A stretch of 64,000 bases of DNA from Candidatus Omnitrophica bacterium UBA6253 (GCA_002441245.1 DJVP01000012.1:116547-180546), one strand, 5' to 3'; shown: positions 45,405 through 62,722, numbered from the stretch's first letter. Numbers and translations: made by a program. The notes: generated from the letters alone by a model not told the origin.

Positions 45405-45830
45405 TTATTTTCTTATAAAATCCTGATAAACCGCCAGGATTATCACAATAGCAGAACTGCTGAAAATGAAAAAATAATTTATGGCATCTTTGTTTGAACG
45501 CAGGCGGCAGAGCATTATGCGCAAAAATTCTCTGTCGCCGGCATCTAAAATCTGGCTGTTCGATATCTTCTTATGGATTTGGTATCTTTCCAATTCCTGG
45601 CGCAAGATTTTATCCTGTCTGAATTTATATAGAAAATATAGAAAGAATCCTGCTACACCCAGATACCAGAAAAACTTCGGCCAGAATAATCCAAAGGGCA
45701 AAACAAGATTTACCAGCCTGACAGAGATTGTGGCAATTATTCCGACAAGAAGAAATAGCCAGGAGACAGTAGTGTCCCTGCAACTTGCGGAAGCCTTACA
45801 ATTAATGCATTGCGTTTTAGGTTTAAACAT
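45405..45830 (-). CDS. Hypothetical membrane protein with N-terminal CxxC...C motif
   Basis: CINCKASASC then 3-4 TM segments. No recognisable family. Confidence 0.4.
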   Translation of the reverse strand: MFKPKTQCINCKASASCRDTTVSWLFLLVGIIATISVRLVNLVLPFGLFWPKFFWYLGVAGFFLYFLYKFRQDKILRQELERYQIHKKISNSQILDAGDREFLRIMLCRLRSNKDAINYFFIFSSSAIVIILAVYQDFIRK

Positions 45831-45833
45831 ATA

Positions 45834-46004
45834 TTATTGAGTAAGGTCCTTATTGTTGCTCCTGCGCAAGGCCTTAACCATGCGCTCATAAGCCTCCAGG
45901 GCTGAAGCCCCTTCAGTAAGATGGTCAAAACAAACAGCCGCATACCCCTTACGGTTTTTAATCTTAAAAATCTGCACTTTTAAGTGGCCGATTTTCTCTA
46001 ACAT
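45834..46004 (-). CDS. Candidate small ORF (56 aa) absent from the ORF track
   Basis: ATG...TAA ORF MLEKIGHLKVQIFKIKNRKGYAAVCFDHLTEGASALEAYERMVKALRRSNNKDLTQ fills a 190-bp same-strand gap. Plausible beta-alpha-beta composition. Confidence 0.3.
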   Translation of the reverse strand: MLEKIGHLKVQIFKIKNRKGYAAVCFDHLTEGASALEAYERMVKALRRSNNKDLTQ

Positions 46005-51943: not shown

Positions 51944-53029
51944 TTAACTCCTTATAAAATGTTTTCCCGGTAATTCTTTGATTAATTTCTTAAATTGTAA
52001 TTTTAAAATCAGGCCTGAAATTTGACTATTGGTCAAAGATGTCTTTTCCATTAAATCATCTATTGCCACTGCTTTATGGCTTATGCAATTGTAAAGCACA
52101 TTTTCTTCTTTTGCACACGAAATATTCTCCTCTAATTCCGGCCCGACCTGATTATTTTCTTTAAAAATACTCAAATTTAATTCTTCAAGTATATCTTCAC
52201 TACAGGTAACCAGCTTTGCACCCTGCTTGAGCAATTCATTAGTCCCCATTGAAACACAAGTATCAATCCTGCCCGGCAAAGCAAAAACATCCCTGCCCTG
52301 CTCCAAAGCAAAATCCACAGTAATCAACGCCCCGCTATTTCTGGCTGCCTCAGTAACCAAAACCCCTAAACTCAAACCGCTGATCAGACGGTTGCGCCGG
52401 GGAAAATTATGCGCCAATGGCTTTGTATCCATAGAAAATTCAGAAACTACTGCTCCATTTTTAGATATCTGCTCGGCCAGGCCACGGTTTTCCGGAGGAT
52501 AAATATGGTTAAAACCGCTCCCCATCACCGCGATCGTACGGCCGGCAGCTTTTAACGCTCCGCGATGGGCGTAAGTATCCACTCCGCGGGCCATCCCGGA
52601 TACAATAGTCAGGTTATTTAAAGCCAGCTCCGCGGCAAATTTCTCTGCGCTGCTTAAACCATAAAGTGATGCCCGGCGTGAACCGACAATACCCAAGCTT
52701 AAACTATCAACCTCGGTTATCCCGCCTGAAACATAAAGCACAATCGGGGCTCCGGGAATAGGCTTTAAGTTTTGAGGGTACCCTTGGTCAAAGAGCGTAA
52801 TAATTTCAAGGCCTGCTTTTTTAGCCTGAGTCAAATCATTCTCTAGATTCCTGGTGTCAAACGAAACAATATTTTCGCTGATCCGGCAGCCCACAACCGA
52901 CTCCAGACTCTGTCGGCTGGCTTTAAATATCTCCTGCGGCTTATCAAAATATTTAAGCAGGCGCCCTAAACATACACTGCCTATCTGCGGGATAAGGTTC
53001 AGGCTTACCAATGACTCAAGGCTATTCAT
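51944..53029 (-). CDS. dprA: DNA processing protein DprA/Smf
   Basis: GMARGVDTYAHRGAL...MGSGFNHIYP Rossmann-like DprA core. Classic smf-topA synteny. Confidence 0.85.
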   Translation of the reverse strand: MNSLESLVSLNLIPQIGSVCLGRLLKYFDKPQEIFKASRQSLESVVGCRISENIVSFDTRNLENDLTQAKKAGLEIITLFDQGYPQNLKPIPGAPIVLYVSGGITEVDSLSLGIVGSRRASLYGLSSAEKFAAELALNNLTIVSGMARGVDTYAHRGALKAAGRTIAVMGSGFNHIYPPENRGLAEQISKNGAVVSEFSMDTKPLAHNFPRRNRLISGLSLGVLVTEAARNSGALITVDFALEQGRDVFALPGRIDTCVSMGTNELLKQGAKLVTCSEDILEELNLSIFKENNQVGPELEENISCAKEENVLYNCISHKAVAIDDLMEKTSLTNSQISGLILKLQFKKLIKELPGKHFIRS

Positions 53030-53532
53030 TTCTTACTGGCAAGTATTTTAGATATTTTATTAACCACCTGTTTAATTGAAAAATGCGTTGTATCAATTAA
53101 TTTGTCGGCTTGCATATAATAAGGCGCGCGCATTTTCAATAAAGTTTCTATACGTTTTTGCGGCTTGCCTACATTCAAAAGCGGCCGGCCTTTATTTGCA
53201 GAAACCCTCCTTAATATTTCTTCGGGGCTTGCATAAAGGCAAATCATTATTCCGGTTCTCTTCATTAAATTAATATTGTCTTTATCTAAGACCACTCCGC
53301 CGCCGCAGGCAACCACAGATTTCTTTTGCGCAGAGACCTGCTTTAAAGCCTTCTTCTCAATTTTGCGGAAATACGCCTCGCCGTCTTTGGCAAAAATATC
53401 TACGATCCTGCGCCGCTCCTTCAATTCAATCAGCTCATCTAAATCAACAAAGCTAGATCCCCTCTCTTTAGCCAATTGGCATCCGACAGAAGATTTCCCG
53501 GTACCCATAAATCCTACTAAATATACATTCAT
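53026..53532 (-). CDS. aroK: Shikimate kinase
   Basis: NVYLVGFMGTGKSSVG P-loop, 168 aa. Confidence 0.85.
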   Translation of the reverse strand: MNVYLVGFMGTGKSSVGCQLAKERGSSFVDLDELIELKERRRIVDIFAKDGEAYFRKIEKKALKQVSAQKKSVVACGGGVVLDKDNINLMKRTGIMICLYASPEEILRRVSANKGRPLLNVGKPQKRIETLLKMRAPYYMQADKLIDTTHFSIKQVVNKISKILASKK

Positions 53533-53585
53533 TTTTTATGCAGGGACGGCTCTAAACTTTGACTTTAGAACCGTCCCCGGGATAG

Positions 53586-53846
53586 CTAACTATTATACGC
53601 TTCCAATACTGTTTCGCTTATCTGCTGCTTCAACTCTTTGGTAACAGGATAAACCGTGTTATACCATTTACCATCTTTTCCTTGATGGCGCGGCATGCTC
53701 ACAAACAAACCCCTGCTGCCGCTTACTACACTGAAACCCTTGACCACAATTCCCGAGATTGAAATATCAACAAAGGCCTTAAGTTTTGAATCGCTGTCTA
53801 ATTTACAGACCCGGCTGACACTTATTACCTTCTCCATCTTGATCAC
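53586..53846 (-). CDS. spoVG: SpoVG-family protein
   Basis: KLKAFVDISISGIVVKGFSVVSGSRGLFVSMP...YPVTKELKQQISETVLEAY parallels SpoVG. Confidence 0.7.
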   Translation of the reverse strand: MIKMEKVISVSRVCKLDSDSKLKAFVDISISGIVVKGFSVVSGSRGLFVSMPRHQGKDGKWYNTVYPVTKELKQQISETVLEAYNS

Positions 53847-53907
53847 CCCTTTCTGTTACAATAGACGAAAGAGGCACGATTATCTAACTTTATATCTTTT
53901 TAGAAAA

Positions 53908-54195
53908 TCAGAATGCGGTTTCGGTATAGACATCATAACGGCTGATACTTTTACCTACCTGTGCATAATCCAGTTCTTCAATTGTCTTTTCAAATGGCTT
54001 AGTAGCTCCAGCAGACAGGCCATTAATAGTAAATACCACATTGGCTACTGAAATATTCTTCATATAAAGTATAATCCGCACTGCCACAGTAGAATAGTTT
54101 TTATCGGTATTATTAATGACCTCACCTTTTACAACTACTTCTTTGGTATTCTCGGATTTTTTAATTTCTATATGATAATAATTAAAGTTAGGCAT
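53908..54195 (-). CDS. Hypothetical 95-aa protein
   Basis: ORF between aroC and spoVG. No motif recognised. Confidence 0.35.
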   Translation of the reverse strand: MPNFNYYHIEIKKSENTKEVVVKGEVINNTDKNYSTVAVRIILYMKNISVANVVFTINGLSAGATKPFEKTIEELDYAQVGKSISRYDVYTETAF

Positions 54196-55234
54196 GAGAT
54201 ATTCTACCCCTGTAATTAGCGTAAGTCTTTTTGATATCGATTAAGGAATCTGAACCGAATTTCTCAAGGAATGCATCAGCTAAAACGAGCGCGCATGCCG
54301 ATTCAGCCACCACGCCGGCAGATTCCACCACGCACACATCCGAACGCTCAATAGCAGCCTTAGCGGATTTCTTGGTTTTAATATTTACCGAATCCAGCGG
54401 ATTCATCAAAGTTGCAATCGGCTTCATGCAGGCGCGTAAAATAATCTCCTGCCCGTTAGATACCCCGCCTTCAATGCCTCCGGCATTATTAGTCCTGCGG
54501 CAATACCCCTTACCTTTATTGTAATAAATCGCATCGTGCACTTCTGAACCAAAACTAACCGCATACCCTAAACCCAGACCGACCTCAAAAGACTTAATCC
54601 CCGGGATAGATATGATAGAACCTGCCAAACGGCTGTCCAGCCTGCGGTCAGCCTGCACATAACTACCCAGACCTACTGGGACTTTTTTGGCAACTACCTC
54701 AAAAACTCCTCCTATCGTATCCTTATTCTTAATCGCCTCGGTTATTTTTGCGGCTACCCCTTTAACAGTAACCTCGCCCCCTACCGATAAAACTCTGCTT
54801 GAAATAGTTATGCCGAATTCACCCAGGAGTTCTTTGCACAAAGCCCCTAAAGCAACTGTAGCTGCGGTGCTGCGCGCCGAGGCGCGTTCCAACACCTCCC
54901 TTATATCTGTAAAACCATATTTCAACAAACCGGCTAAATCCGCATGGCCTGGCCGGGCAGCCATTACCTTATGCAGGCTTTCGATACTTGCGTCTTTATT
55001 TTTTATCAATAAAGTAACCGGGCTGCCAAGAGTAATGTTATTTTTTAAACCAGAACTTATCTCTACCCGGTCATTCTCTATCTGCATACGCTTGCCCCGC
55101 CCAAACCCGGACTGCCTGCGTTTTAACTCTTTATTCATCCGGCTCACATCTACCTTAAGTCCGGCGGGAAAACCCTCCAGTATAGCCACGATTGCCTTTC
55201 CGTGCGATTCACCTGCAGTTAAATATCTTAACAT
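54188..55234 (-). CDS. aroC: Chorismate synthase
   Basis: LRYLTAGESHGKA N-terminus, GRSSARETA-like region, 348 aa. Confidence 0.9.
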   Translation of the reverse strand: MLRYLTAGESHGKAIVAILEGFPAGLKVDVSRMNKELKRRQSGFGRGKRMQIENDRVEISSGLKNNITLGSPVTLLIKNKDASIESLHKVMAARPGHADLAGLLKYGFTDIREVLERASARSTAATVALGALCKELLGEFGITISSRVLSVGGEVTVKGVAAKITEAIKNKDTIGGVFEVVAKKVPVGLGSYVQADRRLDSRLAGSIISIPGIKSFEVGLGLGYAVSFGSEVHDAIYYNKGKGYCRRTNNAGGIEGGVSNGQEIILRACMKPIATLMNPLDSVNIKTKKSAKAAIERSDVCVVESAGVVAESACALVLADAFLEKFGSDSLIDIKKTYANYRGRISHA

Positions 55235-55244
55235 AATATTCCTC

Positions 55245-55829
55245 CTATTGCCTCCAGAGCCCGCGCTTATTTTCGCGCGCCTCTCGATATAATCTTGAAA
55301 ATAAATCCGCGTATTTCACATTTGGCGGATAAGTCATTAAAGACGCATAACCCTCTTCAACAATCATAGCATTCAAGAATCTTCCGTCGGGTAAATAAAC
55401 ATAGGCTAAAATCCTGTTATATCGATCATACCTTTCTTTGTCAAACTCCAACCTTACGCGTTTTCCTTCAGCCATCTGCCTAGTAAAACCATAAGACTGC
55501 CTGCCCAATTGTTTAATTATATCAATACCCTGTCCGCTTCGCCTGGCATCACGATGGAGTTTAGCAGATTCGTGCATCTCGGGAGTATCAATCCCCAGTA
55601 ATCGCACGTATTCTCCATTTTCCAGTTTTAATGTATCCCCATCAACTACTCTCTTTACCAGTATATTACTATAGTCATAATTACTGCCGATAAGAGAAAA
55701 CCGGTTCGACTCTTTTTTAGAATCCATGCAGGGATTCAAAAAATTAGCAAAGAAATATCCCGCTAAAACCAATACCCCTGAAACTAATAAAAAAACAAAT
55801 TTCTTATTCCGTGTCTTTTTCCTGCTCAT
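55245..55829 (-). CDS. Membrane-anchored staphylococcal-nuclease (SNase/thermonuclease)-like nuclease
   Basis: N-terminal TM, then VVDGDTLKL...RLLGIDTPE...R...Y SNase motifs. Confidence 0.75.
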   Translation of the reverse strand: MSRKKTRNKKFVFLLVSGVLVLAGYFFANFLNPCMDSKKESNRFSLIGSNYDYSNILVKRVVDGDTLKLENGEYVRLLGIDTPEMHESAKLHRDARRSGQGIDIIKQLGRQSYGFTRQMAEGKRVRLEFDKERYDRYNRILAYVYLPDGRFLNAMIVEEGYASLMTYPPNVKYADLFSRLYREARENKRGLWRQ

Positions 55830-56383
55830 AGCTGAGAGGCAATAATCTGGGCTAATACCACAATATCTTCAGTACAGAAAATATTCTTTATACTTGAGTC
55901 AAAATACATATTTGCATCAGGCGCAAACTCCGTGTCCTGCTTCCACAACTTAACCAGCACCGGCACATCTATAAATGCCTCGATGATCAGGCTGGCATCT
56001 CCTCCGTCTGATTGCCTTGCCGGCAACCGGCATAAAATATCTTTTAAGGCATCCGGATTCTTGCCGTATTTACGGACTATCGGCTTAATGCAGCGCCTGT
56101 GAAACGCTTCATAATAACCTTGCCCCCCGGGAAATTCCCTGAAGGTAAGCCACCGGCCGCTTGGCGCAGGTAACCCTTTTAATTTTTGCGCCAAATAATG
56201 TAAAAGCAGGATACTTACAAAATCCTTTGCCGGGATATTACAGGAGGAGGAAAGGACTTTTCTTTCCCGGATATTTATACTGTATCCATCCGCCAGGAAT
56301 TTGACTAATAAATTCTTGGCAGGATTAGGGTTAAGATTAGATAAATCCTCCCAGGCCTTATTAAGTGCTGCCTCATAGCCCAT
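55826..56383 (-). CDS. Hypothetical protein, 4-nt overlap with the SNase-like gene (possible DUF3786-like; unverified)
   Basis: 185 aa, several Cys, no recognised catalytic motif. Confidence 0.4.
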   Translation of the reverse strand: MGYEAALNKAWEDLSNLNPNPAKNLLVKFLADGYSINIRERKVLSSSCNIPAKDFVSILLLHYLAQKLKGLPAPSGRWLTFREFPGGQGYYEAFHRRCIKPIVRKYGKNPDALKDILCRLPARQSDGGDASLIIEAFIDVPVLVKLWKQDTEFAPDANMYFDSSIKNIFCTEDIVVLAQIIASQL

Positions 56384-56560
56384 ATTTTATTATATAATTA
56401 TTATCGCATAAATCAATGATTTTAGATAGCGGCGCTGTCTTGGCTTGCCGCATGCCGAAAGATGACGATAAAAAAAGAACATCTTTGTTCCAAGGAGAGG
56501 CTTACTCCTAAAGAACGGGGATACTTTTAACGACAGGGCCCCAAGGCAAACATTATTATA

Positions 56561-56588
56561 TTGCGGTTGCGGTTTTTTGACTTATAAT
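56561..56588 (+). promoter_or_regulatory. Possible sigma70 promoter (TTGCGG-16-TATAAT) that would give a leaderless helicase mRNA
   Basis: TATAAT at 56583-56588 lies 7 nt before the helicase ATG at 56596, with no SD sequence. Confidence 0.3.
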
Positions 56589-56595
56589 AGAAACT

Positions 56596-58485
56596 ATGAT
56601 TTACGACAGGTTCCAGCAGGAAGCCATTAACCACATCAATAACGGCCACTCGGTAATCGTCTCAGCTCCAACCGGCGCAGGCAAGACCGTTATTGCCGAA
56701 CACATTATTTCTTCATGTATTGCAACTAAAGAATGTTCGGCAGGCGTAATCTACACCGCACCTATTAAAGCCCTCTCCAATCAGAAATTCCGAGACTTTC
56801 AAGGCCAATTTCAGGATAATATCGGAATTCTTACCGGTGATGTTTCCATTAACCCCCAGGCCCCGGTCTTGATCATGACTACGGAGATCTTCCGCAACAA
56901 AATACTGGATGAGCCGGAAAGCCTTAATAAATACTCCTGGATTATTTTTGATGAGATCCATTATATTGATAATCCCGAACGCGGCACGGTTTGGGAAGAA
57001 TCCCTGATCTTTCTCCCTAAGCATATGAATCTGTTGGGGCTGTCAGCAACTATTCCCAATATTAAACAATTCGCTTCCTGGATTGAATCCATACATAATA
57101 AACCTATCAAAGTAGTGATCGAAGAAAACCGGCCCGTGCCTTTGCATTTTCTTTTCCAGTGCCAGAATGAAATAGTGGATAAAATTGAACGCCTTAAGCG
57201 CCTGCGCTCAAGTAAGCCTAACAGGCTCAATTCGCTGGTCGATTACCTGCGCGGAAACGACGGATTACCGGCGATATATTTTGTCTTCAGCCGCAAGCGC
57301 GCTGAAGAATTGGCCCAAGACCTCTACGGATTTAAATTTTTAGATGCCAAGGAAAGCCGCGCAATCACCCAGATGTATGAAGATTTAATGGTGCGTTTTA
57401 ATCTAAAACATGAACAATCAGCGCAAATCCTTTACCCTCTGGTGCAGCGCGGGATCGCCTATCACCACGCAGGTATGCTGCCGACATTAAAAGAAGTAAT
57501 TGAAAGGCTTTTTACCAGCCGCCTGCTTAAGGTTATCTTTACCACCGAAACCTTTGCCCTAGGAATTAATATGCCCAGCCGTTCTGTTATGTTCGACGGC
57601 CTGCGTAAATTCTACGGTACCTATGTGCGTAATTTAAAAACGCGCGATTTCTACCAGATGGCCGGCCGTGCCGGAAGGCGCGGCATCGACAAGGAAGGAT
57701 TTGTTTATACACGGGTTAACCCGCAGAGGATAAATTTCGAAGAGGTTAACAGGATAATTTTCGGTAAACCCGAGGAGGTAAAAAGCCAGCTCAACACATC
57801 CTATGCCACCATCCTTAACCTTTACGAAAAATACCAGGAGGATTTATTTAAAATATATCCCCTATCTTTGCATTACTATCAATCAAATAAAAATGAACAG
57901 AAACAGGCATTAAACCTGCTGGATGCAAAGCTCAGACTATTAAAAGAATTAAATTATATCCATGAAGGAAAGCTTTCGGAAAAAGGCAAGTTCGCAAAAA
58001 CCGTTTACGGTTATGAATTGGTACTGGCGGAATTATATGACCAGAATATACTTGAACAGCTGGATGAATTCGAATTAGGGGTAACGGCCTCTGCGGTTGT
58101 ATTTGAGCCGCGCAAGAATCAACGTATGCCTACAGGCATATCCAAGTCTGCTCGCGCGCTCAAGCGCATCTGCGAAGAGAATTACAACCGGATAAAAGAT
58201 AAAGAACGCCGCTACAAAATTTACCCCTTCAGCAAACTCCCCTATTTTCATCTATGCTCAAGCATGGAGGCATGGCTGCGCGGGACAAACTTTGATAAGA
58301 CCCTACAGATGACTGATTGCGACGAAGGCGAGGTAGTGCGTTATTTCAGGATGAGCGTACAGGTTTTAAGGGAAATCTCACAGGCTCCGATTGCCTCATA
58401 CCTGCTTAAAGATAAAATAAAAGAAACCATCCGCGTGATAAACCGCGATATTGTTGACGCAGAAAAACAACTCCGCGAAGGCTAA
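56596..58485 (+). CDS. Ski2-like/DEAD-DEAH superfamily 2 helicase
   Basis: Q-motif F..QQEAI, motif I APTGAGKT, motif [26 protein letters not shown]-terminal arch/accessory region. Confidence 0.8.
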
Positions 58486-59411
58486 TCTAAGCTAAGATAA
58501 TCCTGGATTATTTTCTTGTGGTCAAAAGCAAAATCGAGCTTTTCCAGTTCCTGACGTTTTACCACCTTCAAGCCGGCCGCATCGTCACCGGCCTTCGGCT
58601 TTCCTTTTGCCTTGGCGATAAATACCGTACCGACGGTATGAAACCTGGGATCCCTCTTGGGATCCGAATAAGTATGGAACTGGCGTATCTCGGTGAGCTC
58701 CAGGTCCGTTTCTTCTTTTGCCTCCCTTTTTACCGCATCTTCAAGGCTCTCCCCGTAATCTACGAACCCCCCGGGCAAGGCCCATCCGAACGGAGGGTTA
58801 CTGCGCTTGATGATCACTATCCCTTCGGCCAGTTCGATGATTGCATCTACCGTAACATACGGACCGCCGGACAACTTTGTGGTTACATATTCCAAATATC
58901 CCAAAACCCCTTTATTAAAAACCGCAAATGCCTCCTGGTCATAAAGGCAGAAAATAATTTCTTTTAAAGAAGTATCCTCCTCCCGCAAAAGCTTTAATAC
59001 CTCCTGGGCCATAATCTTGGCGGATGCCAAAAGCGGAAAACCTCCAGTGCCGCATCCTAATGCCGGAAAAACAATGGAACTGATTTTTAATTCATTAGCC
59101 AGCGCCAACGCGCTCCTTGCGGCGTCACGGATTTTTACCTCATCGGTCTTAAAATCCATGCCCATGGTCACGGTATGAATTACATATCTTGCCGCCAGCT
59201 CCCCGGCAGTAGTTTCAACCGCCCCCCCTACCTTTATGGGAGATTTCTTCAACGCCTCTTCTTCAATGACCTTACCGCCCTTACGCTTGATTACACCAGC
59301 AACCCCTCCACCCATCAAAAGCTTATTATTTGCGGCATTCACAATCGCATCCGCCCTTGACTCGGTAATATCTCCCAACACCACCTTGATTTCCGTATTT
59401 TTAATCTTCAT
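58482..59411 (-). CDS. Macro domain (ADP-ribose binding/hydrolase) - NUDIX hydrolase fusion protein
   Basis: N-terminus [17 protein letters not shown]...GGGVAGVI...[10 protein letters not shown] is macro-like. C-terminal half carries the [30 protein letters not shown] box. Confidence 0.75.
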
Positions 59412-59468
59412 ACCACTCCCCTTAAAGGCAATTGCCTACAAAGAACAGACATCAACAGGACCCGCCAG

Positions 59469-59885
59469 TTATTCACCGATTATTTTTATTAATACTCGTT
59501 TCTTCCGCTGCCCATCAAACTCCCCGTAAAAAATCTGCTCCCAGGGGCCAAAATCCAGCTTGCCTTTCGTAACCGCCACAAGCACTTCCCTGCCCATAAT
59601 CGTACGCTTCAAATGCGCATCCCCGTTATCTTCGCCGGTCAGGTTATGCTGATACCTGTCTTTACCAAACGGCGCCAACTTCTCAAGCCAGATAGAAAAA
59701 TCTCTATGCAGCCCGCTTTCATCATCATTGATAAAAACACTGGCGGTGATATGCATAGGGTTAACCAGGCATAAACCTTCTTTAATCCCGCTTTTGCGCA
59801 AGGCCTCTTCTACCTGAGCCGTGATATTAATAAAATCCTGTTTTCCCTCGGTATTAAAATAAAGATACTCAGTATGTGATTTCAT
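59469..59885 (-). CDS. YjbQ/UPF0047-family protein (secondary thiamine-phosphate synthase-like)
   Basis: 138 aa with the [25 protein letters not shown] pattern of UPF0047. Confidence 0.65.
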
Positions 59886-60626
59886 TTACAATTTCTCCAA
59901 TATTAATTTGTCATATTTTTGATCAATTTTGAAATTAAATTTCTTCAGAAAAGACATGCCCAGCAATCCATCTTCGGGAATAGCTGTATTTTCATTTTCA
60001 GGCAAGATCGCCGCCTCTATATTTTTTACCTCGGAATCCTGTACGCTAACACTCTCTAAAATCACCATCCTTGCCTCTGTTTTACGGCCGTCTGCCAGCA
60101 TCAACTCTATCGACTTACCGCCCTTAACATCAGTATCCATCCCTAAATCTTTGGCTATTTTATTTGACAATATTATTAAAGAAGCGCCGGTATCCAAAAT
60201 AAGGTTGGCCTTGACTTTATTGTTCAGCGTGGTTATCACCTTAACATGGCCGCTTTGCTTGTCTACGCTTACCTGCTTTGGCTCATGTTCTCTTCTTAAC
60301 GCTGCCTCTTCAGCCCTTTCCTGCACCTTTGACTTTTCATCAGCCCATTCCTGCCTGATTGATGCAGCCTCTTCAGAAGAAGACCTGACTATCCGCTCTA
60401 TCTGTTTCCTAGAAAATTTCATTGAGCCGAAACTGATCTCCAGGTCAACCTCATCCGCACTTTCTTTCTTAATCAACCCTTCAATGTTGCGCCCGTTTTT
60501 CAAATAAAGGATATCTGCAAATACCTGCAGTTGAAAATTAGACAAAATTAAAAAAGCCAGCGCCGTTAAAATAATATTTAAACGGATTTTTAACATTTTA
60601 TACTTTCGCGGCTGAAACCGCCTCAT
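59886..60626 (-). CDS. Secreted retropepsin-like (clan AA) aspartic protease
   Basis: Signal peptide; LILDTGASLIILS catalytic D-T/S-G motif. The true start is probably the ATG at 60597 (MLKIRLN...). Confidence 0.65.
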   Translation of the reverse strand: MRRFQPRKYKMLKIRLNIILTALAFLILSNFQLQVFADILYLKNGRNIEGLIKKESADEVDLEISFGSMKFSRKQIERIVRSSSEEAASIRQEWADEKSKVQERAEEAALRREHEPKQVSVDKQSGHVKVITTLNNKVKANLILDTGASLIILSNKIAKDLGMDTDVKGGKSIELMLADGRKTEARMVILESVSVQDSEVKNIEAAILPENENTAIPEDGLLGMSFLKKFNFKIDQKYDKLILEKL

Positions 60627-60828
60627 TCACAGAGCAGATAAAACTTATCCGCTCAAGTATTCCGCCTCGACTTTTGTCCGAAGGGCTCAATTTTAGGCAA
60701 TCCTTTAATGGCCTCCAAAGACTTGTGCAGTTTATGTTTTGGAAGCGCATATTTTGTAAGCCTGCCAGACAAAAATTTATCATATCCGGCTAAATCCATC
60801 AGGCCATGTCCGCTGTAGCAAAACAGGA

Positions 60829-62049
60829 TTACTTTCTGCTTTCTTTCTTGGCTTTTTTGGCCTCATCAATAGCACAGGCAATCGCATGGCTGGTCTCAGG
60901 AGCACAGATAGTACCCTCGGTCTTTCCCCAGATCATCGCTGACTCATAACACTTGATCTGATCATATGAACGCGGGTTAATCAGGCCTTTGGCTGCTGCC
61001 TGGCTGACTAAAGGCGCCATACCATGATAACGCAAGCCTCCGGCATGAATCGGCTCAGGCACAAAATCATGCCCCAAGGTATACATGGCCAACAACGGAG
61101 TAAGCCCGGCAGTATCTCCAAAATCATAAGTAAACGGCCCCCTGGTCAATGTCGGGCAAGCTGTAGGTTCAACCGGAATAATCTCAATCTTCTTGCCATG
61201 GATTTTATCACAGATAAACGGAAAAGATACTCCGGCAAAATTGCTGCCTCCTCCTACGCAACCTATAACCACATCAGGAGTTTTCTCTCCGGCTATTTTC
61301 AATTGCTTTTTTGCTTCAAGGCCGATAATTGTCTGATGTAATAAGACATGGTTTAAGACGCTGCCCAAAGAATAACGCGAATTTCCGCTTTTATCGGAAA
61401 CCGCATCCTCTACCGCCTCGCTTATAGCAATACCCAAGCTTCCAGGGGTATGCGGCATCTTCCTTAAGACCTCCCGCCCGGCAGCCGTATCATGGCTGGG
61501 ACTTGCAACACACTTTGCCCCCCAAACCTGCATCATCGTCTTACGCATCGGTTTCTGGTCAAAGCTGATGCGCACCATATAAACCTTACATTCAAGACCG
61601 ATTAGATTACAGGCAAAAGCAATAGCACTTCCCCACTGTCCGGCTCCGGTCTCTGTAGTCAATTTCTTAATCCCGAATTTCTTATTATACCAGGCCTGGG
61701 CCACGGCGGTGTTCGGCTTATGGCTTCCTGCAGGACTGACGCTTTCGTCTTTGTAATAAATACGGGCAGGGGTTTTTAAATATTCTTCCAGCGCCAGCGC
61801 TCGGCGCAACGGAGCAGGCCTCCACAAAGCCAGCATCTCCAATACCTCTTCAGGAATATCAATCCAACGCCTGATTGAAACCTCCTGATCGATTATATTC
61901 ATAGGGAAGACCTTGGCGAGCATTTCAGGCTTAAGCGCCTGGCCATCCGGGCCCAAGGGAGGCTGTATTGGCCCGGGCAAATCCGCGGCTAAATTATACC
62001 ATTGCCTAGGGATATCTTTTTCAGGAAGAATTATTTTATTGAAAGGCAT
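60829..62049 (-). CDS. TrpB2-type tryptophan synthase beta-like PLP enzyme (stand-alone)
   Basis: [19 protein letters not shown]...AGSHKPNTA and the extended TrpB2 N-terminus. The ORF-track upstream extension to 62163 overlaps nth and is rejected. Confidence 0.8.
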
Positions 62050-62068
62050 TTTTCTCCTTATCCTTGAG

Positions 62069-62722
62069 TTAACGCGACCTAGCAACACCCCTTCTTTTAC
62101 AAAATCTATAAACTTTACATTTGCTGCAAAATGGCGAAACCGGAAAACATAAATTCTGGCCAAAGGTTACCAGGATAGTGTTTAGTTCAATCCATTCCTT
62201 CCTGGGAACGATTTTTTGCAAAGCAAATTCTGTTTCTTCGGGATCATTTGTTTTTATCCAGCCCAGACGGTTTGAGATTCTATGCACATGCGTATCCACA
62301 CATATTGCGGGAATGCCAAATCCCAAACCCAAAACCAAGTTAGCTGTCTTTCTGCCTACCCCCTTTAAACCTAAGAGCGCATCCAGCCGGTCCGGAACTT
62401 TCCCGGAATAATCTTCTAATAATTTTCTGCTTAAATTCAGGATCACCCTGCTTTTATTGCGATAAAAACCCACCGGGTAAATTAATTTCCGGATCTTCCC
62501 AACAGTTAATTTTAGCATACTCTTGGGCTTATCCGCAACCTTAAACAATCTCTGGCTGGCCGCAATTGTAGTCTTATCTTTAGTGCGCAGAGAAAGTATA
62601 CAGGAGACCAAAACCCGATAAGCATCATGCTTGGCAGAAATCTGGGTAACCGAAGGAATTATACAATCCTTAACCTGCCCTTTTATTAATTTTATAGTTT
62701 TTAATATTTTTTTAGCGCTCAT
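62069..62722 (-). CDS. nth: Endonuclease III (HhH-GPD glycosylase with 4Fe-4S loop)
   Basis: [12 protein letters not shown] HhH motif, VDTHVHR, C-terminal C-x6-C-x2-C-x5-C cluster. Confidence 0.85.

Follow-up and report, generated by a model that had tools for sequence, protein, structure and literature searches.

A nuclease, DUF3786, helicase and Macro-NUDIX gene cluster of an Omnitrophota lineage is probably a conserved housekeeping neighbourhood

Nucleases, helicases and ADP-ribose-processing modules recur in defence systems, and genes for all three lie side by side in a 64,000-nucleotide (nt) stretch of Candidatus Omnitrophica bacterium UBA6253 (GCA_002441245.1, DJVP01000012.1:116547-180546). 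Within this stretch, hereafter the window, positions 55245-59411 encode an SNase-type nuclease, a DUF3786-family protein, a Ski2/Mtr4-type helicase and a Macro-NUDIX fusion protein. A preliminary description of the DNA attributed a defence-island-like flavour to this cluster and named RNA quality control and ADP-ribose housekeeping as the alternative. Do the four genes form an anti-phage system, or are they neighbours with separate roles? The anti-phage reading was not supported, and we favour the housekeeping alternative with a probability of about 0.8: the genes probably became neighbours by chance and have stayed so in a block of the core genome that one Omnitrophota lineage inherits vertically, and they are divided among three separate transcription units with unrelated housekeeping roles. 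Each adds to an already known family, and together they do not make up a system. The features of the locus are as follows (aa, amino acids).

55245-55829, minus strand: SNase-type thermonuclease gene, putatively exported or membrane-anchored (194 aa; second cistron)
55826-56383, minus strand: DUF3786-family gene (185 aa; first cistron, probably leaderless; accessory within the clade)
56384-56595, no strand: divergent spacer with two predicted, overlapping back-to-back sigma-70-like promoters (promoter scan and comparison of relatives)
56596-58485, plus strand: compact arch-less Ski2/Mtr4-type DExH RNA helicase gene (629 aa; monocistronic; C-terminal DSHCT)
58482-59411, minus strand: Macro-NUDIX fusion gene (309 aa)
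59010-59342, minus strand: Macro domain, MacroD/YmdB/TTHA0132-like (Pfam Macro, aa 24-134)
58500-58856, minus strand: NUDIX hydrolase domain, putative ADP-ribose pyrophosphatase (Pfam NUDIX, aa 186-304)

Synteny, conservation and transcription units

A scan for the helicase in one genome per GTDB species returned 490 relatives, the best 80 of which (74-96% identical) were used for synteny. Nearly all of these 80 loci are titled Omnitrophota, some are titled 'uncultured Planctomycetales' and one Margulisiibacteriota. Fifteen window proteins were compared with them by tblastn, and presence was counted only where flanking DNA sufficed. Most of the 80 loci share the order and orientation topA-dprA-aroK-spoVG-(hyp95)-aroC-SNase-(DUF3786) <> helicase >< Macro-NUDIX-yjbQ-protease-trpB-like-nth-DUF6268, in which <> and >< mark the divergent and the convergent pair. 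Macro-NUDIX was found in 62 of 66 informative loci (median identity 75%) and SNase in 55 of 60 (67%), next to AroC in 49 of 53 (75%), TopA in 38 of 40 (72%) and DprA in 38 of 41 (57%), and DUF3786 was present in 45 of 67 (59%). The helicase occurs in all 80 loci by construction, with a median identity of 77% that is mildly favoured by the ranking by helicase similarity. Since the identities of helicase and Macro-NUDIX match those of TopA and AroC, purifying selection on both appears as strong as on bona fide core genes. Such conservation is the reverse of what defence genes typically show, namely a patchy distribution and fast evolution.

The setting in the window itself, which is identical in sequence to a contig of a Candidatus Omnitrophota metagenome-assembled genome (GCA_028712745.1), is of the same kind. 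All genes within 10 kb on either side belong to housekeeping Pfam families, among them CCA-adding enzyme, AsmA, nth, a trpB-like PALP enzyme, an aspartic protease, yjbQ, aroC, spoVG, aroK, dprA, topA, a Xer-type recombinase, kdtA, greA and dCMP deaminase. No tRNA genes were present and base composition showed no anomaly at the locus. Instead of the suspected defence island we thus found synteny with topA, dprA, aroK, aroC, nth and yjbQ that is fixed in most of the 80 species genomes, and no mobile or defence association of the four genes at the level of this clade; synteny and conservation alike favour the alternative of RNA-quality-control and ADP-ribose housekeeping genes.

Open reading frame (ORF) calls and Pfam searches upheld the structural outline in the preliminary description, i.e. 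four ORFs with their domains and two 4-nt overlaps. The stop of DUF3786 and the start of SNase fall together in ATGA, and no Shine-Dalgarno-like motif precedes them, in agreement with the proposed translational coupling, and the convergent helicase and Macro-NUDIX genes share CTAA at 58482-58485 as stop codons. The latter overlap is not conserved; the gap between the two genes varies from -4 to 3353 nt in relatives and the overlap is therefore incidental. The helicase gene also proved to be the only convincing plus-strand gene, the remaining plus-strand ORFs lying inside minus-strand genes; one plus-strand ORF (45481-45840) faces a more plausible minus-strand membrane ORF of 141 aa.

Three transcription units can be proposed from this layout. 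The aroC gene starts 10 nt after the SNase gene, and its AGGAGG overlaps the SNase stop, so that DUF3786 and SNase would be the first cistrons of a long minus-strand housekeeping array continuing into aroC, spoVG, aroK, dprA and topA. The helicase gene would be transcribed alone, from the other strand. A GGGGAG Shine-Dalgarno motif of its own precedes Macro-NUDIX, 57 nt downstream of yjbQ, and this gene would be the last cistron of a minus-strand array with nth, the trpB-like gene, the aspartic protease gene and yjbQ.

On the scale of the whole window (1-64000), essentially all genes except the helicase lie on the minus strand and every 2-kb bin shows a negative GC skew (-0.06 to -0.25), the weakest value coinciding with the helicase; the one-strand gene arrangement and the negative skew indicate extreme gene co-orientation along a single replichore. 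The trpB-like PALP ORF was called mechanically at 60829-62163 (minus strand, 444 aa, TTG start, 95-nt overlap with nth), and as the protein has 406 aa in public gene calls, its true start is probably downstream.

Comparison with defence systems and mobile elements

Profile hidden Markov models of PADLOC were run on six proteins of the locus. Matches were obtained to HamB of Hachiman systems (122 bits), DarG of DarTG systems (39.5 bits), an SNc+LTD candidate system (81 bits) and the NUDIX-type PDC-S07 (41 bits), and they span only the generic domain cores, i.e. helicase core, macro domain and SNase domain; DUF3786 had no match. The HamB profiles align residues 4-371 of the helicase with profile positions 148-530 of 864. 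HamB and the helicase are alike in their SF2 core of the Ski2/Hel308 type, but the helicase carries a DSHCT C-terminus in place of the HamB-specific regions, its gene is a highly conserved core-genome gene, and a HamA/DUF1837 gene is not adjacent. Neither protein flanking the helicase matched the HamA model of PADLOC, and DUF1837 was not among the Pfam families within 10 kb on either side. The helicase gene is monocistronic, divergent from one neighbour and convergent with the other, and so has no HamA operon partner. Among proteins of known structure the helicase is far nearer to Ski2 (E = 2e-110, 373 bits) and Mtr4 (1e-100) than to Hel308 (5e-44) and HamB (7e-18, 68 bits). We therefore rejected membership in Hachiman, given the missing HamA and a match confined to the helicase core.

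Likewise, membership in DarTG was rejected on account of a missing DarT and a match restricted to the macro domain. The fusion protein resembles DarG in the Macro domain fold and gives a weak profile match (39.5 bits with PADLOC, 36.7 bits with NCBIfam), but it lacks the DarG C-terminal domain, its macro domain is nearer to the MacroD type (113-135 bits against MacroD-type models versus 39 against DarG) and is fused to a NUDIX domain, and it is not accompanied by a toxin gene, no DarT (DUF4433)-like gene being found within 10 kb on either side.

In the phage and plasmid collections no record reached 80% coverage of the helicase, of Macro-NUDIX or of DUF3786. IMG/VR held no close relative: the helicase had distant matches to its core only (27-36% identity), many of them on GVMAG contigs, and Macro-NUDIX and DUF3786 had none. 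The fixed synteny and the lack of full-length mobile homologues led us to reject a generic defence-island context as well. Accessory or mobile genes do occur at the helicase junctions of some relatives, in five loci (L057 9885-11122, L064 6282-7571, L071 9888-11141, L058 9878-11236 and L079 1885-3213) with cargo comprising an HTH plus AbiEii toxin-antitoxin pair, IS605 OrfB/TnpB, an AAA_14/DUF4143 ATPase and Peptidase_G2-like and glycosyl-hydrolase-like proteins. Such cargo is absent from the window. The helicase junctions are permissive insertion points at which the core genes stay fixed.

Could the cluster nevertheless be a chromosomally fixed anti-phage or NAD/ADP-ribose-signalling system, whether it resembles Hachiman (helicase plus nuclease), contains a macro antitoxin as in DarTG or combines the modules anew? 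The profile matches and the toxin-antitoxin and insertion sequence (IS) cargo accepted at neighbouring junctions speak for it, yet the former are generic and the latter sporadic. Near-universal presence in the loci of the clade at the conservation of topA and aroC, three units that are not co-transcribed, a nuclease whose N-termini in relatives suggest export, and an association that dissolves around more distant helicase homologues all point away from a system, and we consider this explanation extremely unlikely.

Apart from the four genes, several ORFs around the junctions deserve mention. In three loci (L071 9888-11141, L090 1926-3251 and L091 1-351), two of them from distant lineages, the compact DSHCT helicase has an AAA_14/DUF4143 ATPase no more than a few kb away, a recurrence that may reflect the commonness of the family. 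A multi-pass membrane protein of ~735 aa with no Pfam match occurs at different junctions in different relatives (L018 10874-13069, L019 10872-13097 and L085 5703-7910) and the window lacks it. In L018 and L019, whose two ORFs are 83% identical, its place is between Macro-NUDIX and yjbQ, and gaps of ~2.2 kb at this junction in L014, L020, L026, L029, L031 and L033 probably hold it likewise; L085 has a 48%-identical copy between DUF3786 and the helicase. Finally, a 95-aa ORF with no family match (53908-54195, minus strand) overlaps the aroC start by 8 nt and was seen in only 23 of 52 informative relatives (37-89% identity), i.e. it is poorly conserved inside a conserved operon.

Predicted functions of the encoded proteins

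The helicase matched the Pfam families DEAD (94.9 bits), Helicase_C (33.3 bits) and DSHCT (PF08148, 94.8 bits; aa 458-621 against profile positions 2-171 of 172). Its translation contains GAGKT, DEIH, SAT and a further 10-residue motif, with motifs I, II and VI of the DExH SF2 core present, as well as a 15-residue ATPase-motif segment. It shares core motifs I, II, III and VI and the C-terminal DSHCT helical domain with the Ski2/Mtr4 exosome helicases and with HelY, an actinobacterial Ski2-like helicase, and is 36-41% identical to Ski2/Mtr4-length proteins (E = 1e-100 to 1e-110). In contrast to these, it has neither the arch/KOW insertion of ~250 aa nor N-terminal extensions, and exosome or Ski-complex partners are not evident. 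There is no Mtr4/Ski2 arch (stalk/KOW) insertion in the protein, whose 629 aa leave no room for one. The best matches in the PDB are the shortest Ski2 and Mtr4 chains listed, 4buj_A and 6c90_A, which we take to be arch-deleted constructs. Compact relatives align to the helicase in a single stretch versus three stretches for eukaryote-length ones, and an exhaustive representative search returned dozens of bacterial 50%-identity clusters of 640-680 aa with the same compact form. The protein thus belongs to the Ski2/Mtr4 (DSHCT) clade as a naturally arch-less form, and its homology suggests a 3'->5' RNA helicase that would act in RNA turnover or surveillance.

Five more distant compact DSHCT helicases (40-50% identity, 642-656 aa) all have different neighbours: an AMP-binding enzyme and ABC transporters; a VWA protein, PEPCK and GcpE; BacA, GltX and PlsX; a Ser/Thr kinase and a WD40 protein; and cytochromes. 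Neither a Macro-NUDIX nor a DUF3786 gene was found near any of the five, and one has an unrelated DUF1016-SNase protein 4.6 kb away. Our literature search on bacterial Ski2/HelY/DSHCT helicases and Macro-Nudix fusions yielded nothing directly applicable.

Both domains of the 309-aa Macro-NUDIX polypeptide are well supported. The Macro domain (PF01661, 112.2 bits) has the motifs GDIT...NAAN...GGGV, and its PDB matches (1e-19 to 1e-31) are led by Thermus TTHA0132 (1.3e-31), followed by MacroD-type proteins and O-acetyl-ADP-ribose deacetylases. As all NCBIfam equivalog cut-offs were missed, the Macro assignment is at the family level and substrate specificity is a matter of prediction. The NUDIX domain (PF00293, 74.6 bits) has its best PDB match in the Aquifex Nudix protein 2yyh (1.8e-31); its 23-residue Nudix box follows GX5EX7REUXEEXGU with only the last G replaced, by D. 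Its nearest NCBIfam models are of the NadM-Nudix and NtrR (ADPR-binding) types, with scores under their cut-offs, and together with the fusion to a Macro domain they suggest specificity for ADP-ribose. IMG names relatives 'O-acetyl-ADP-ribose deacetylase / ADP-ribose pyrophosphatase'. With Macro motifs and Nudix box intact, the protein resembles both the MacroD/YmdB-type deacetylases, with TTHA0132 as the closest solved structure, and the NadM-Nudix-like ADP-ribose pyrophosphatases, and differs from them in uniting the two domains in one chain. Judged by its domain families, it would be a two-step detoxification and recycling enzyme: ADP-ribose would first be released by the Macro domain from O-acetyl-ADP-ribose or from substrates carrying mono-ADP-ribose, and would then be cleaved by the NUDIX domain to AMP and ribose-5-phosphate. 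The hydrolysis of such compounds proposed in the preliminary description is hence backed by domains and intact motifs, while the substrates themselves remain predicted.

The nuclease matched Pfam PF00565 with 75.2 bits and the NucI-like model of NCBIfam with 103.6 bits, under the equivalog cut-off of 250 bits. It is 32% identical to staphylococcal thermonuclease (Nuc/NucI) over the catalytic domain and retains all Ca2+-binding and catalytic residues, equivalents of D21, R35, D40, T41, E43 and R87 aligning with S. aureus nuclease A. The two enzymes also share an N-terminal export signal or anchor; the score below the NucI cut-off and an operon with DUF3786 and aroC set the present one apart. 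The membrane anchor noted earlier agrees with its hydrophobic N-terminus and with signal-peptide or lipobox (lipoprotein signal) N-termini in relatives, from which we infer that it acts outside the cytoplasm. A role as an intracellular effector for the helicase was rejected, as the nuclease carries export signals. With its Ca2+-nuclease active site intact and a signal peptide or anchor, it would most likely degrade extracellular or periplasmic nucleic acid, e.g. for nucleotide scavenging.

The 185-aa protein had been called unknown, which holds only in part: it is a clear member of the Pfam family DUF3786 (134.5 bits, E = 4e-39, cut-off 27; profile positions 17-174 of 176), and it is the family that is uncharacterised. 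Only one of five AF2 models was confident (pLDDT 80), a profile search against PDB sequences gave only E >= 0.98, and these comparisons point to no fold or sequence relative of known function. A literature search on DUF3786 likewise found nothing relevant.

A conserved putative divergent promoter and the weighing of alternatives

The only distinctive feature of the locus is a conserved, predicted ~58-nt back-to-back promoter between DUF3786 and helicase. A promoter scan of the window placed a minus-strand promoter at 56416..56389 (TTGATT-16 nt-TATAAT), 5 nt short of the DUF3786 ATG, and on the plus strand a TATAAT at 56583-56588 precedes the helicase ATG by 7 nt. In 26 relatives the DUF3786-helicase spacer is at most 100 nt long (50-60 nt in 21 of them), and most of the 26 fit the pattern cat-N5-7-ATTTTA(C)-N17-AATCAA-N11-TATAAT-N6-7-atg. 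This core reads as two sigma-70-like promoters, each with its -35 element inside the spacer of the other. Because the -10 boxes end 5-8 nt from both start codons, leaderless or near-leaderless mRNAs are implied for DUF3786 and helicase. The other 12 operon-first genes of the window have GGAG-type Shine-Dalgarno motifs, which makes the leaderless layout unique to this pair among 14. In relatives that lack DUF3786 the promoter core persists, and SNase has a short leader with a Shine-Dalgarno-like motif.

The spacer of the window is longer by a lineage-specific insert of ~130 nt (about 56425-56560) between the two conserved edges; close relatives likewise have invariant edges and a variable centre. 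About 95 nt of the insert could be aligned with a single close relative (L009), and the differences look compensatory (e.g. AAAGATG...CATCTTT versus GGGGTG...CATCCCC); in other close relatives this position is taken by unrelated inserts of 300-400 nt. Folding z-scores of the insert were -2.0 and -1.7. A repeat or miniature inverted-repeat transposable element was rejected, as a blastn search of the window and of loci L001-L087 showed no further copy. An Rfam scan of 53000-61000 (E <= 1) gave no matches, which argues against a known riboswitch or small RNA in the spacer.

A promoter of this kind would allow co-regulation, and two functional links are conceivable at this end of the cluster. The helicase and the DUF3786-SNase pair might form a lineage-specific, co-regulated nucleic-acid module in which, for example under stress that favours leaderless mRNAs, RNA turnover is linked to nucleic-acid scavenging. 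The abutting or overlapping -35 elements and start-proximal -10 boxes of most short-spacer relatives, the singular layout and the retention of the core even without DUF3786 are consistent with this. However, the minus-strand unit runs into aroC and is dominated by housekeeping genes, so any coupling is not nuclease-specific; the nuclease would work outside the cytoplasm and the helicase inside; distant helicase homologues lack these neighbours; and both promoter function and leaderless starts are predictions. We regard such a module as unlikely. Quite unlikely, too, is a DUF3786 protein that serves as a dedicated SNase partner, be it as an inhibitor or immunity protein inside the cell, in the way that barstar serves barnase, as a chaperone or as an aid to export. 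Its ATGA overlap, in which SNase lacks a Shine-Dalgarno motif of its own, implies that the two are translated together and in roughly equal amounts, the two genes are adjacent in 45 relatives, and DUF3786 has many invariant polar residues. Nonetheless, at least 15 relatives encode SNase, behind its own Shine-Dalgarno leader, and lack DUF3786, which argues against an obligatory nuclease-immunity role. Moreover, DUF3786 is a distinct Pfam family that is not defined by SNase association, and the one distant homologue examined, from Acetoanaerobium, is flanked by a ROK kinase and a Na/Ca exchanger, SNase being absent from its vicinity.

Several points nevertheless weigh against viewing the four genes as unrelated housekeeping neighbours. 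The helicase and the DUF3786-SNase unit have a conserved overlapping bidirectional promoter in common and an unusual leaderless layout, from which co-regulation could follow. The 80 loci are the top matches in a ranking on the helicase, which is at least 74% identical in all of them, and stand for one clade rather than the phylum; a few relatives have accessory or mobile cargo at the helicase junctions, so the spot tolerates insertions; DUF3786 is a family without known function; and the PADLOC comparison covers profile models on six proteins. At its furthest, the bidirectional promoter could place the helicase and the DUF3786-exported nuclease pair in a co-regulated, lineage-specific regulon for nucleic-acid stress or scavenging in what are probably host-dependent nanobacteria, with DUF3786 as a new nuclease-associated factor and Macro-NUDIX as a fixed guard against ADP-ribosylation-based attack, a very unlikely scenario in our judgement. 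A vertically inherited block of separate housekeeping genes remains the preferred reading.

The result is mainly a negative one: domain content that looks defence-like (helicase, nuclease, Macro/NUDIX) can belong to an ordinary, vertically inherited housekeeping block, and generic PADLOC domain matches are not evidence of a system. On the positive side, the Omnitrophota clade studied has compact arch-less Ski2/Mtr4-type (DSHCT) helicases among its highly conserved core genes, and a conserved overlapping divergent promoter of ~58 nt appears to give rise to leaderless mRNAs on both sides, Shine-Dalgarno leaders being the rule elsewhere in the genome.

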